From NCBI GenBank assembly GCA_041694815.1, contig JBGFSC010000006.1, positions 24,937 through 88,936 of the forward strand: a DNA stretch of 64,000 nt, read 5' to 3'. The first letter of the stretch is position 1, and the number at the start of each line of letters is the position of its first letter. The notes beneath the pieces were generated by a model, which ran no database searches, had not been told where the DNA came from, and saw nothing but the letters and a program-made list of their open reading frames with translations. Of the stretch, positions 8,923 through 63,880 are shown piece by piece. The translations under genes and the position numbers were made by a program. The stretch comes from Elusimicrobiota bacterium (GTDB lineage Bacteria > Elusimicrobiota > Elusimicrobia > UBA1565 > JACRDR01).

Positions 8923-8985
8923 TGAGTCCCAAGACCTAAATCGTCTGGGTCCTTGGGCCCCGAGAATTTAGGACCAAAAGGCCCT
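8923..8985. promoter_or_regulatory. Triple-box operator array A (divergent promoter)
   Basis: TGAGTCCCAAGACCTA 8923-8938, TGGGTCCTTGGGCCCC 8946-8961, TAGGACCAAAAGGCCCT 8969-8985 (23-bp period). -10-like TAAACT at 9007 (+) and CATACT at 8900 (-), each 38 bp from the start of the proximal box. Confidence 0.75.
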
Positions 8986-9018
8986 CGCGATTTGCTGCCG
9001 CTCCGCTAAACTAGTCAT

Positions 9019-10728
9019 ATGAAAAAACTACCCGTCGTACTCGCCCTCTTCACCGTATTATCCGTCGCGCCCAGCCCACGCTCCTATGCCCAGTTCGGCA
9101 ATCCGTTCGCCGCGCAGGAGGAGCAACATAAGAAGGTCGTAGGAAGGCTCGGCGAAGCGCTCAATGCCAAGCAGTCCGAGATGCCTAAGGATGTTTGGAA
9201 GAGAGTCCATGAGGAATATAACCGCCTCCTTAATATGCAGCCCCACAATCCCGAGGCCCAGAAATCGATAGATTACCTGCAATGGTTCATCGATCTTCCT
9301 TGGGGAAAAGAGACCCAGGATCGATTCGACCTGGCGGAGGCTCAAAAGATATTAGACCGCGATCATTACGGGCTCGACCAGGTCAAGGAGCGTGTCATCG
9401 AGTACCTGGCGGTCCGCAAGAGAACCGCCTCGCAGAAGGGAGGCATTCTCTGCTTCGTGGGGCCCAAGGGAACCGGGAAAACCTCCATCGCCAAGGCCAT
9501 CGCCGAGTCCATGGGCCGCAGCTTCGTCCGCTTGTCTCTGGGCGGAGTCAATAACGAGGCGGAATTGCGCGGGTTTCAGAGGACCTATATGGGATCACGG
9601 CCGGGCAGCATCATCACCCAGATGAAGAACGCCAAGACGATAAACCCCGTGATGCTCATGGACGAGGTGGACAAGCTGGCCGATGGCAGTCACTACGGCG
9701 ATCCTCGGGCGGCGCTCTTGGAGATCCTCGACCCGGAGCAAAATAATACCTTCCGGGACCATTATATGGATGTCCCCTATGATTTGTCGAAGGTGCTCTT
9801 CATCCTCACGGCCAACGATATGAGGAGGATCCCACCGCCCCTGCTCGACCGCGTGGAGATCATCGAGTTCTCGGCCTACACGGTGCGCGAGAAGGTGGGC
9901 ATAGCCCAGCACCATATCGTGGGCCGTAAGCAGCGCGAATGCGGCATCAAGCCGGGCTCCTGCGAGCTCACCGTCGCGGCCATCGAGCAGATCATCGACG
10001 GCTACACGATGGAGGCCGGGGTGCGCAACCTGCAGGAGAACATCGGCGGCGTCTACCGCAAGGCCGCCGCCTGGGAGGAGACCAAGGGCCTGCCCATCCC
10101 CAAGAAGATCGATCATGGGCAGGTGAAGGATTACCTGGGAGCCCCGCGCTACGGCCACCGCATCATGGAGGAAAACGGCGTCGGGGTCGGCACGGGCTTG
10201 GCGGTCAGCGACAACGGCGGGAGCACGCTCAACGTCGAGGTGCTCAAGGTGCCCGGAGACGGCAAGGTCCGCACCCGTGAGTTGATGGAGAAGATGTTCC
10301 AGGATTCCGCCGACAATGCCGTGGCCTACGTCAAGTCCAAGGCCGTGGAACTGGGCATCGATCCGGAGGATTTCAAGAAATACGATCTGGAGATCGCGAT
10401 AGCTCCCGCGATTCCGGTCGACGGGCCTTCGGCGGGTACCGCCATGACCACGGCGATCGCGAGCAGCTTGAGCGGCCGCAGGATCCGTAAGGGAGTAGCC
10501 ATGACCGGCGAGGTCACGTTGACCGGCAAGGTGCTCCCGATCGGTGGGCTCAAGCAGAAGGTGATGGCGGCCGAGCGCATGGGCTACGACACGGTGCTTT
10601 TCCCCGCCGCCAACGAGCATGAGCTCGAGGAGATTTCCCCCGAAGTGCGCAAGAAGATGACATTGGTGCCCGTCAAGACGATGGACGAGGTCTTGAATCT
10701 GGCCTTGGAGCCCCGGCCCCAGGCCTGA
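9019..10728 (+). CDS. lon: Lon (S16) protease, AAA+ and protease domains only, with N-terminal signal-like peptide
   Basis: LDRDHYGLDQVKERVIEYLAV, GPKGTGKTS, RTYMGS, MDEVDK, LLEILDPEQN, DGPSAG (Ser), PIGGLKQK (Lys). N-terminus MKKLPVVLALFTVLSVAPSPRSYA. Confidence 0.9.
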   Translation: MKKLPVVLALFTVLSVAPSPRSYAQFGNPFAAQEEQHKKVVGRLGEALNAKQSEMPKDVWKRVHEEYNRLLNMQPHNPEAQKSIDYLQWFIDLPWGKETQDRFDLAEAQKILDRDHYGLDQVKERVIEYLAVRKRTASQKGGILCFVGPKGTGKTSIAKAIAESMGRSFVRLSLGGVNNEAELRGFQRTYMGSRPGSIITQMKNAKTINPVMLMDEVDKLADGSHYGDPRAALLEILDPEQNNTFRDHYMDVPYDLSKVLFILTANDMRRIPPPLLDRVEIIEFSAYTVREKVGIAQHHIVGRKQRECGIKPGSCELTVAAIEQIIDGYTMEAGVRNLQENIGGVYRKAAAWEETKGLPIPKKIDHGQVKDYLGAPRYGHRIMEENGVGVGTGLAVSDNGGSTLNVEVLKVPGDGKVRTRELMEKMFQDSADNAVAYVKSKAVELGIDPEDFKKYDLEIAIAPAIPVDGPSAGTAMTTAIASSLSGRRIRKGVAMTGEVTLTGKVLPIGGLKQKVMAAERMGYDTVLFPAANEHELEEISPEVRKKMTLVPVKTMDEVLNLALEPRPQA

Positions 10729-10730
10729 TC

Positions 10731-11342
10731 ATGAGCAAGGCCACGGCAAGCTACTGGCTCGCCTTAGCCATTATCGCGCTCTCTGCGGTTGGCCGCGCGG
10801 CGGAGACCGCCAAAAGCGACGAGGAGGCCAAGCAGCAGGCTGACCTCCAATTCGATGAGTCGGGCAAACTGCCCCTACTTACCTTACCGAAAGGGTATAA
10901 AGCGGAAAGACCGGCGATGGGCAGTCTCGGAACAGCTCCTCTTAATATCACCGATGCGCAGGACAAGCTTCCGCTCTTGCCGATCCCTTCACCGGCTCCA
11001 GCCCGACGCGCCGGGCCGAACGTGCTTGAAGGGCTTATCGGCAGCTTGATCGGCTCCGCCATCGGCAGCCATGTATTTGTCAATGTCTTTACCCCGATGT
11101 TCTCGGCGCAGCCGCTGCTGATCCCCATCGTCGCGGCTATTTTCGGCATGTCCATGGGGACTCGCATGGCCATGCCGATGGCGATGTTGATAAGGCGTCG
11201 CTGGCCCATGATCGTTATGCCCCTGTTGCTCGGAGCCGTTTGCTTCCTGATCCCTCCCATGGGTGGAGCGATATGGGGAATGATGATTCTGGGACCGCTA
11301 TTCGCCCGCCTTTTGGCTAAACTCGGGTCTTTAAAGAAGTAA
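10731..11342 (+). CDS. Exported/membrane hypothetical protein with QFDExGKLPLL leader and hydrophobic C-terminal half
   Basis: Signal-like N-terminus; shared leader with 8277..8888; several Gly/Met-rich hydrophobic segments; starts 2 bp after the lon stop. Confidence 0.75.
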   Translation: MSKATASYWLALAIIALSAVGRAAETAKSDEEAKQQADLQFDESGKLPLLTLPKGYKAERPAMGSLGTAPLNITDAQDKLPLLPIPSPAPARRAGPNVLEGLIGSLIGSAIGSHVFVNVFTPMFSAQPLLIPIVAAIFGMSMGTRMAMPMAMLIRRRWPMIVMPLLLGAVCFLIPPMGGAIWGMMILGPLFARLLAKLGSLKK

Positions 11343-63142: not shown

Positions 63143-63143
63143 G

Positions 63144-63764
63144 CTACTTGGCGCCATCCTTCTGCGCCAGTTCCTTGAGAGCCGAGATCTTGGCATTGGC
63201 CTCTTCCGAGTGGGTGCGAGCGCTCCTGAGCCGGCTGGATACTTCATCCTGGCTTGACGAAGACAACGCCGTCTTCGTGGCGGCTATTTCTTGCTCGACG
63301 TCCGCGATTATTTTTCCCACCGTCCTCGAGTAAAGAGCGTATTGATTCTGGTCGCAGTATATCTCCAAGTGATACCGGCCAGGCCGCCTGTCAATCGCAA
63401 GTTTGGCGTCCTCGAGTACTATTTCGGCCCCCGCCAATGCTGCCTGCGCCGCCGCGCGCGAGCCCTCGCTCGCTTTTTGGACGCTGTCGTCAGCGCGGCG
63501 AACCGCTTCGGTCGTCTTATCGAAGGCTCGCTGCGTCCAGACGCAAGCATCGCGGTCCGGATTGCCAGCATGAATGCCACAGCCGACGGCGCTCAATGCG
63601 AGCAGCGGCACCCCGACCAGGGTCACTAGCCGCTGGCGCGCGCTCATCTTCTTTCGGGTTTGCGCCGCAGCGGCGCCAAGCTGTGCCTGGGTATTTCCTA
63701 AATCCTGCGCCGAGGCAGTGAAGGTCCCGCAGGCAAGAATAGCCGCTAAAAGCCATCCGTTCAT
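63144..63764 (-). CDS. Dual-signal helical family, short form
   Basis: ...TASA-QDLG...ARQRLVTLVGVPLLALSAVGC...DACVWTQRAF. Confidence 0.85.
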   Translation of the reverse strand: MNGWLLAAILACGTFTASAQDLGNTQAQLGAAAAQTRKKMSARQRLVTLVGVPLLALSAVGCGIHAGNPDRDACVWTQRAFDKTTEAVRRADDSVQKASEGSRAAAQAALAGAEIVLEDAKLAIDRRPGRYHLEIYCDQNQYALYSRTVGKIIADVEQEIAATKTALSSSSQDEVSSRLRSARTHSEEANAKISALKELAQKDGAK

Positions 63765-63817
63765 CTCATTTGCCCCCTTATCACCCCTTAGGATAGGGCG
63801 CCTGTTGCCCTGCGGCA

Positions 63818-63880
63818 TGAGGCCTTGGTCCTACCTATCGCTGGTCTTAATGCCTAGCGCTTCCTGGGACCAAGGACCTA
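63818..63880 (-). promoter_or_regulatory. Triple-box operator array E
   Basis: Minus strand: TAGGTCCTTGGTCCCA (63880-63865), TAGGCATTAAGACCAG (63856-63841), TAGGACCAAGGCCTCA (63833-63818); TATCCT at 63795 (38 bp). Confidence 0.8.

Follow-up and report, generated by a model that had tools for sequence, protein, structure and literature searches.

What is the function of a set of three palindromic boxes that recurs at fixed spacing, and at a fixed distance from a -10-like hexamer, before several genes of one bacterium? The question is raised by a 64,000-nucleotide (nt) stretch of an Elusimicrobiota genome (hereafter the window; G000:C9:24937-88936), part of an assembly of 2.77 Mb in 54 contigs with 63% GC (G000, the source genome). 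Five such arrays, designated A to E, are present in the window. Our analysis indicates that they are, with high probability, phased binding sites for a transcription activator. That this activator is the NarL-type response regulator encoded on another contig, C27, is a less secure conclusion that we nevertheless favor.

Five box arrays in the window

The initial annotation of the window, made from its letters alone, described five three-box arrays with a start-to-start spacing of 23-24 bp, and all five were located at the positions it gave. The arrays, their -10-like hexamers and the genes behind them are as follows.

8923-8985, no strand: array A, boxes 8923-8938, 8946-8961 and 8969-8984/5, the outer two serving divergent promoters
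9007-9012, plus strand: -10-like hexamer TAAACT of array A, 38 bp from the box start at 8969; ATG at 9019, 6 nt past the hexamer
8895-8900, minus strand: -10-like hexamer CATACT of array A, 38 bp from the box start at 8938; ATG at 8888, 6 nt past the hexamer
9019-10728, plus strand: gene behind array A for a Lon-like protease with a signal peptide and AAA and Lon_C domains, without the usual Lon N-domain
8277-8888, minus strand: gene behind array A for a 203-residue signal-peptide protein without a Pfam family
18777-18839, plus strand: array B, boxes 18777-18792, 18800-18819 (degenerate) and 18824-18839
18862-18867, plus strand: -10-like hexamer CATATT of array B, 38-39 bp from the proximal box (start 18824 or 18823, by box register)
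18896-19420, plus strand: gene behind array B, 174 residues, signal peptide, no Pfam family, short leader with GGGAGG
19449-19512, plus strand: array C, boxes 19449-19464, 19473-19488 and 19496-19511
19534-19539, plus strand: -10-like hexamer TAAAGT of array C, 38 bp from the box start at 19496; ATG at 19547, 7 nt past the hexamer
19547-20680, plus strand: gene behind array C for a signal-peptide protein with a pyruvate-kinase barrel domain
61204-61266, minus strand: array D, boxes 61251-61266, 61227-61242 and 61204-61219, the last being proximal for the minus-strand operon
61176-61181, minus strand: -10-like hexamer TATCCT of array D, 38 bp from the box start at 61219; ATG at 61153
57383-61153, minus strand: operon D, open reading frames (ORFs) 60542-61153 (signal peptide), 59472-60545, 58413-59471 and 57383-58492, none with a Pfam family
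63818-63880, minus strand: array E, a paralogue of array D, boxes 63865-63880, 63841-63856 and 63818-63833 (proximal)
63790-63795, minus strand: -10-like hexamer TATCCT of array E, 38 bp from the box start at 63833; ATG at 63764
61428-63764, minus strand: operon E, ORFs 63144-63764, 62078-63247 and 61428-62081, none with a Pfam family

Checked base by base, each of the six promoters shows the proposed 38-bp distance from box start to hexamer (38-39 bp for array B). The annotation was also right that array B has a degenerate middle box and that array A serves its two divergent genes symmetrically (8969 to 9007 on the plus strand, 8938 to 8900 on the minus strand). The mRNA beginning at the plus-strand ATG at 9019 is predicted to be leaderless. 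The window contains 18 matches with at most one mismatch to the loose pattern TRGGNCNNNNGNCCYA, against 7.36 ± 2.52 expected, a count reached by none of 100 shuffles. Triplet scoring of the genome found no sixth array anywhere in the window, and an Rfam search of the window matched no family. A look for public sequencing runs covering the locus, RNA included, returned no entry.

Arrays D and E allow a direct comparison, as they stand before paralogous operons whose first proteins are 45% identical. Of the proximal box and the TGCC behind it, 21 of 22 bases are the same in both promoters, as are the TATCCT hexamer and the majority of the remaining box positions, while the 20-nt stretch between box and -10 has diverged. 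Judged from these aligned sequences, the boxes appear to be kept by selection and not by copying.

The box motif across the genome

A first weight matrix, built from ten window boxes, gives 72 matches of at least 15 bits in the genome against 8 in a triplet-shuffled genome, and triplet scoring identifies 53 arrays, only five of them inside the window. Because the matrix was seeded from the window, the window arrays match by construction; the other ∼48 arrays, and those of other genomes, do not. Rebuilt from 182 hits, the matrix defines a 16-bp palindrome with the consensus TAGGCCTTAAGGCCTA, composed of two half-sites of 6-7 bp. It is strongly intergenic: 172 of the 274 hits of the rebuilt matrix fall within the non-coding 9% of the genome, and 49 of the 53 arrays lie outside rough gene calls, the other four overlapping ORF calls with over-extended 5' ends.

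Genome-wide, the distances between hits peak at 23 bp (21 pairs), 24 bp (20), 46 bp (5) and 47 bp (10), and the absence of a peak around 70 bp sets the maximum at three boxes. Median scores are alike for all three boxes (∼11 bits). Within the proximal box, however, the downstream half carries 3.8 bits against 7.6 bits for the upstream half, and this weaker half is directly followed by GGC or TGC. The initial annotation had called for a motif search of the genome and its relatives; the motif proves non-random, enriched between genes and present in relatives. The element is real, strongly non-random and functionally constrained.

Promoter anatomy

Orienting 61 array flanks toward their downstream ORF reveals a sharp register. 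The hexamer [TC]ANNNT stands at +38 from the start of the proximal box in 33 of them, and no other offset between 30 and 49 exceeds six. In the aligned promoters, the conserved elements are the three boxes, the 2-3 bases after the proximal box (GGC/TGC) and the hexamer, while the spacers vary. Where the hexamer lies at 37-39, as it does in 34 promoters, TTGACA at a 16-18 bp spacer is matched at best in only 1-4 of six positions, a distribution equal to that of simulated sequence of the same composition, and a TGn extended -10 occurs in three. A good -10, a -35 at chance level and a palindrome that ends where the -35 should begin together argue for promoters without a usable -35.

An ATG or GTG follows the hexamer by 4-9 nt in 23 of these 34 promoters. 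This proximity suggests that many transcripts are leaderless and indirectly supports the assigned -10 and a start ∼7 nt beyond it. Provided that transcription starts ∼7 nt past the hexamer, the proximal box is centered at ∼-42.5 (33 of 61 flanks). The spacing of 23-24 bp corresponds to ∼2.2 helical turns, so neighboring dimers would be rotated by ∼50-80 degrees and not stacked on one face.

These measurements refine two elements of the initial annotation. It placed the boxes about two helical turns apart; the regular, phased spacing stands, but the boxes do not recur at exactly two turns or on exactly the same face. It also proposed an activator overlapping the -35; the location next to the -35 is borne out, but the box abuts the hexamer position (box positions 16-21), where a weak xKGC or TTG remnant follows, and takes the place of only part of it. 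Its central proposal, three phased dimer sites for an activator next to the -35, is supported by the genome-wide data and by the cross-genome data given below.

Distribution across the class

The motif extends well beyond the source genome. The pattern TRGGNCNWWNGNCCYA has 36 sites in G000 against one for the reversed control, and all 40 same-order relatives (three families, 21 genera) carry 7-72 sites against 0-11 for the control. Across a 151-genome sample of the phylum, the motif is enriched in the same-class families f1-f5 and f8; it is not enriched in the same-class families f6, f7, f9 and f10 or in the other classes sampled.

Two small genomes of family f4 show the same architecture in a different base composition. 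Among 16 fetched loci at 32-51% GC, ten have two or three boxes 22-24 bp apart, and the promoters read box, 8 nt, box ending CYCTTG, ∼19 nt, TATACT, 6 nt, ATG. The genes behind them are signal-peptide ORFs without a Pfam family. In the AT-richer f4 genomes, the TTG at box positions 16-18 stands just where a -35 hexamer with a 17-bp spacer would begin.

A different palindrome was encountered in two genomes of another class, G050 and G071. There, T[AG]GGACAWWTGTCC[CT]A is near-invariant and present in ∼8-10 copies per genome in coding-looking DNA (loci L121 and L126); L121 has two copies at a distance of 36 bp, both followed by a CAAAATTTG tail. This sequence is not a promoter array and may represent a small mobile palindrome. 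A possible co-variation of recognition helix and motif in family f15 was dropped because the G050 and G071 palindromes lie in coding-looking DNA and not in promoter arrays. A literature search found no paper on Elusimicrobia promoters or regulons, which is not proof of absence.

A NarL-type regulator as the candidate activator

The initial annotation noted that no cognate regulator gene is evident in the window. This is correct, and a strong candidate lies on another contig. A 16-bp palindrome of 7-2-7 form, in phased arrays abutting the -35, is the habit of NarL/FixJ-type regulators, which makes the sole GerE protein of the genome the candidate. It is a REC+GerE protein (G000:C27:50865-51545) whose gene follows those of a dCache-HAMP-HisKA-HATPase kinase and a REC-HisKA-HATPase hybrid. 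This order (kinase, hybrid, regulator) is kept at 10 of 12 fetched orthologue loci, the ORF picker having failed on G147 and G006.

The distribution of this regulator follows that of the motif. Orthologues 65-88% identical occur in every motif-rich family, and identity stays at 67-72% between genomes of 63% and 32-47% GC; motif-poor families have homologues of at most 52% identity, or none. All 62 genomes of the motif-rich families encode a REC+GerE orthologue, and these 62 hold 801 sites against 71 for the control, with sites exceeding control in 61. The 89 genomes without an orthologue hold 51 sites against 116 for the control; 86 of them show no enrichment, and only three reach five sites. 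Two of these three exceptions are G050 and G071, whose sites are the different palindrome described above.

In motif-rich genomes the sequence of the putative recognition helix is S(V/I)KT(V/I)KNH; the three distant homologues have SEKTVKN(H/Q) instead. The nearest proteins of solved structure are VraR and LiaR (1e-39 over the full length; helices ITIKTVKTH and ITLKTVKTH), followed by DevR, NarL and DesR.

Other regulator families were surveyed through a census of shared orthologues in five motif-carrying genomes (G000, G104, G080, G088 and G115), all five of which encode GerE proteins, including the C27 orthologue. CRP/FNR-type regulators, suggested by the -41.5-like class II geometry and represented by three proteins in G000, were rejected. 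The CRP-like protein L079 is found in only one of 46 f4 genomes, many of which gave no first-look candidate, and has orthologues in many motif-free families; the FNR-like protein on contig C34 has its own canonical, perfect TTGAT-N4-ATCAA box beside its gene. OmpR-type proteins are absent from four small f4 genomes, MarR and TetR from G080, LysR from G000, and HTH_8 from all five census genomes. HTH_3 (Xre/cI-type) proteins occur in all five but share no orthologue: the eight HTH_3 ORFs of G000 (72-133 residues) match the f4 HTH_3 proteins (210-273 residues) over at most 64 residues.

The genes behind the arrays

The initial annotation expected a regulon of exported proteins. Signal-peptide-like N-termini are found in 49 of 71 array-flanking ORFs against 641 of 2259 genome-wide (odds ratio 6, Fisher p = 6e-13); the signal-peptide heuristic is crude, and some of the 71 are spurious flanking ORFs from the non-promoter side. 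The targets have a lower mean GC content at third codon positions (GC3) than the genome (0.70 vs 0.79), and no Pfam family is found in 38 of 60 targets outside the window or in 10 of 15 window proteins.

The identifiable targets are diverse. Those with a signal peptide include Lon (AAA + Lon_C), a ClpB-like protein, an AAA_5 ATPase, an FtsH M41 fragment and a pyruvate-kinase barrel. Others are a staphylococcal nuclease, an endonuclease I, two subtilases, two FGE-sulfatase domains, a CN hydrolase, HEAT, TPR and WD40 repeat proteins and an outer-membrane barrel, and a histidine kinase gene is divergent from one array. Signal-peptide versions of usually cytoplasmic enzymes are encoded at 9019-10728 and 19547-20680 in the window and at G000 C15:3073-5367, C18:8636-9253 and C20:63843-66542; such copies of normally cytoplasmic ATP-dependent enzymes form a puzzling set. 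No close orthologue of the exported Lon-like gene was found in 30 relatives, where the matches are canonical cytoplasmic Lon at 46-56% identity, and phylogenetic footprinting through its orthologues failed for this reason. Downstream of operon D, the minus-strand region 50019-56293 encodes a 1573-residue protein with two AAA/ClpB-like modules after a 518-residue protein with a 2OG-Fe dioxygenase domain.

The regulon is mostly, but not exclusively, one of exported proteins, as two-box variants stand before a tRNA-His gene and upstream of secA. The first is in exact register before the genome's only tRNA-His(GTG) gene (G000 C34:35006-37239), which has a TGnTAAAAT extended -10; in the other direction lie a signal-peptide TPR protein and then the FNR-like regulator (C-x2-C-x5-C). 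Just past this FNR-like gene are a perfect TTGATTTAGATCAA box and a perfect TAGGCCTAAAGGCCTA box. At secA, the two boxes are separated from the -10 by one arm of a palindromic repeat that is unrelated to them. A sigma-54 reading of GGATNCCTGGCNCC at secA was rejected: its spacing is wrong, it is an arm of the palindromic repeat (53 matches), and no HTH_8 protein was found.

Mobile and repeat elements beside the boxes

Two multi-copy elements adjoin the boxes. One of them reaches the window:

63888-64000, plus strand: inward-reading end of a multi-copy mobile element, which begins 7 bp past array E's outer box and continues beyond the contig end

The same element, beginning AGAACTCGTCGGGCACATCGTTACC..., is found at nine contig ends (window 63888-64000 and C3_R, C5_L, C12_R, C15_L, C17_L, C33_R, C38_L and C50_R). 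It starts exactly 7 bp past the outer end of a box in nine of nine cases, with variable 7-bp spacers; this places its bases 16-21 (CATCGT) at the -10 position, 38 bp from where the box starts. A similar inward-reading sequence, TGAGGACGTCGGGCACATCGTTACCAGC..., is found at the start of eight further contig ends, with no box adjoining, and looks like the element's other inverted repeat. The element, whose interior is unassembled, is apparently an insertion sequence that either has the boxes as its target or is favored by selection beside them. It was not found in the 40 relatives searched.

A second multi-copy element starts with CAGCTGTCCCAAGAAAG directly after a complete box at six contig ends (C12_L, C17_R, C20_R, C27_R, C38_R and C45_R). 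At seven others (C18_L, C20_L, C37_L, C41_L, C44_R, C47_L and C51_L) it starts with CAGTAGTGTCCCAAGAAAAA, mostly after an apparent left half-box (e.g. ...GGGGCCGAAAG), which suggests insertion into or beside the palindrome.

The unrelated palindromic repeat seen at secA also has a copy in the window, at 34189-34335, with arms GGTGCCAGGCATCCACTTTCTACACTTTC... and ...GAAAGTGTAGAAAGTGGATGCCTGGCACC. Its core, GGATNCCTGGCNCC, occurs in 53 genome copies, always in the GGTGCCAGGCATCCACTTTCTACACTTTC/GAAAGTGTAGAAAGTGGATGCCTGGCACC arm context and often just upstream of a TATAAT-like hexamer. This repeat is MITE- or REP-like (miniature inverted-repeat transposable element; repetitive extragenic palindrome).

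Proposed mechanism

We propose that each array provides two or three sites for dimers of one conserved transcription activator. The proximal dimer, centered at ∼-42.5 directly upstream of a vestigial -35, would recruit RNA polymerase with a housekeeping-type sigma factor to a promoter with a good -10 and no usable -35, and binding of the upstream dimers, at distances of 23-24 and 46-48 bp, would be cooperative. Since the boxes are palindromic, an array can fire outward from both ends, as array A would. Many transcripts would start at or beside the start codon. The activator would most likely be the phosphorylated form of the sole REC+GerE regulator, a NarL/FixJ-type protein of the LiaR/VraR/DosR kind, and the whole would form a class-wide two-component switch for the exported proteome.

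Several observations weigh against this mechanism. The two-box array before the essential, single-copy tRNA-His gene speaks against control that is only conditional, even though the -10 there is of the extended TGn type. Sites of the response regulators DevR and BvgA are spaced in phase at 21-22 bp, 1-3 bp less than the 23-24 bp found here. Homologues of at most 52% identity in motif-poor genomes keep K-x-x-K-N and differ mainly in V/I vs E, so the helix alone does not explain specificity. Some f4 genomes with a regulator orthologue have few exact sites (G060, one; G123, one; G084, two against two for the control). In 13 of 15 loci, the regulator operon is preceded by no box of at least 10 bits, and no convincing box for autoregulation was found. 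The regulator screen covered eight families. Finally, the genomes with an orthologue probably form one clade, so that any clade-specific gene would correlate equally well.

The phyletic match is thus statistically weak; it gains force in combination with other points, namely that the regulator family was predicted beforehand, that the C27 gene is unique in the genome and extremely conserved, and that seven other families failed. In its most extended form, the proposal holds that one class-conserved switch (dCache kinase to REC-kinase hybrid to NarL-type regulator) turns on essentially the whole fast-evolving exported proteome. It would do so through at least 50 promoters per genome, among them those of exported nucleases, subtilases and Lon-, ClpB- and FtsH-like proteins, with an off-phase three-dimer array (∼23.5 bp) replacing the -35 and largely leaderless mRNAs. 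The importance of the sites would have led two or more insertion-sequence families of this genome to insert at constant distances from them, in one case so that a -10-like hexamer of the element itself occupies the activated position. Taken as a whole, this statement is speculative, and we put it forward tentatively.

A regulon of this kind would explain how protein export is coordinated in these bacteria, through a compact, activator-dependent promoter design with single-base-pair geometry. Gene regulation in the Elusimicrobiota is almost unstudied, and the arrays now provide a testable grammar of promoters, a list of regulon members and a specific candidate for the regulator in a whole class, which we take to include small genomes and a lineage cultured enough for experiments.

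Alternative explanations

The alternative that survives best accepts the arrays as activator sites but assigns them to another conserved DNA-binding protein, of an unscreened family, the NarL-type regulator being conserved for other reasons. The limited screen, the lack of an autoregulatory box and the confounding of the phyletic correlation by shared descent all leave room for it. However, the 16-bp palindrome is of the type published for the subfamily of the C27 regulator (available portions of PMC4447274 and PMC3177182), three-dimer arrays abutting the -35 are a known habit of the family (as described in the part of PMC7250471 consulted), and the regulator is unusually conserved across genomes of very different GC content (67-72% identity, 63% vs 32-47% GC). 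We regard another binder as a serious possibility, though an improbable one.

A repressor or silencer acting on foreign-looking genes for exported proteins would account for the low GC3 of the targets and for the 38 of 60 without a known family, a pattern also typical of silenced, horizontally acquired genes. It fits the promoters poorly, as their -35 is at chance level and the proximal box is fixed just upstream of the -35, not over the -10 or the start site. Moreover, a repressor needs no single-base-pair register with the -10, and the register in 33 of 61 flanks argues against one. We consider such a role unlikely and infer that the bound protein activates.

The boxes might instead be a REP/MITE-like mobile or structural repeat without a transcription-factor role, being short, numerous and palindromic, with the ends of two insertion-sequence families at constant distances from them; some mobile elements do target REP palindromes. 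A match to a known mobile repeat, which the initial annotation had named as a result that would overturn its reading, is contradicted by the copies themselves: they share only the box and -10 columns, with variable spacers and flanks. Their place, moreover, is ahead of genes and not at 3' ends, in constant register with the -10, and families of 32-64% GC keep them before unrelated genes, which makes this explanation very improbable.

Equally hard to credit is a -35 of an alternative sigma factor formed by the proximal half-box and KGC, with incidental upstream boxes: even small genomes encode 3-4 sigma-70-family proteins, but the palindrome is repeated up to three times at fixed spacing, the better-conserved half of the proximal box is the upstream one, and the -10 is of the housekeeping TANNNT type.

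Comparison with known systems

Activator sites in tandem before a promoter have known precedents. In phage lambda, OR1, OR2 and OR3 are three palindromic operators spaced 23-24 bp center to center, and a cI dimer near -42 touches sigma region 4. Lambda, however, offers a single locus and not a regulon, and no HTH_3 orthologue is common to G000 and the small same-class genomes.

The DevR/DosR system of Mycobacterium tuberculosis is another parallel. According to the available text of PMC3177182, the half-site recognized by DevR is GGGACT, the proximal one of its tandem Dev boxes lies at -42.5 with a neighbor at -63.5, one pair of boxes drives divergent genes, and DevR binds in a cooperative, phase-dependent manner; the consulted part of PMC13486717 describes contacts of the DosR activation complex with sigma region 4 and the alpha subunit. 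The likeness extends to the NarL family, palindromic sites with a common GGNC core (GGGACT vs RGGNCY here), tandem boxes (two to four for Dev), a proximal center at the -42.5 that is predicted here and one box pair driving divergent genes, as array A would. In contrast, Dev boxes measure 18-20 bp and recur every 21 bp, in helical phase, whereas those described here measure 16 bp and recur every 23-24 bp. DevR controls ∼48 dormancy genes in one genus, while the present motif, which is conserved throughout a class, marks ∼50 promoters, mostly of exported proteins, as predicted binding targets.

BvgA has the three-dimer layout that is predicted here. In the portion of PMC7250471 available, BvgA~P is reported to bind Pfha as three head-to-head dimers every 22 bp, the proximal one abutting the -35, and Pptx as six. 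Like the candidate proposed here, BvgA is a NarL-type regulator with regularly spaced dimers, and it is a master switch for secreted and surface proteins. As far as the same text describes them, its dimers lie at 22 bp on one helical face, its half-site is different, and only the distal Pfha site is strong, whereas the three boxes score alike here.

The cell-envelope stress regulators LiaR, VraR and CesR offer a further comparison, as VraR and LiaR are the nearest solved proteins and share a hydrophobic residue in the helix, x(V/I/L)KTVK. The consulted part of PMC4447274 gives a 16-bp inverted repeat within a 25-bp motif for LiaR and the motif TCAGHCTnnAGDCTGA for CesR; the latter, a palindrome of 16 bp, has T1, G4 and C6 in common with the half-site found here, T-R-G-G-N-C-Y. 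The signaling partners differ from those of LiaFSR and VraSR: a dCache-HAMP-HisKA-HATPase kinase, whose dCache domain is extracytoplasmic, and a separate REC-HisKA-HATPase hybrid are found in place of a LiaF/LiaS pair with its intramembrane-sensing kinase, although no search was aimed at LiaF. The regulon is also far larger than that of LiaR, for which phased triple arrays do not appear in the available text of PMC4447274. In mechanism the arrays would belong to a known kind, tandem-box promoters under activation by a response regulator; what is new is the regulon and its motif, not the principle.

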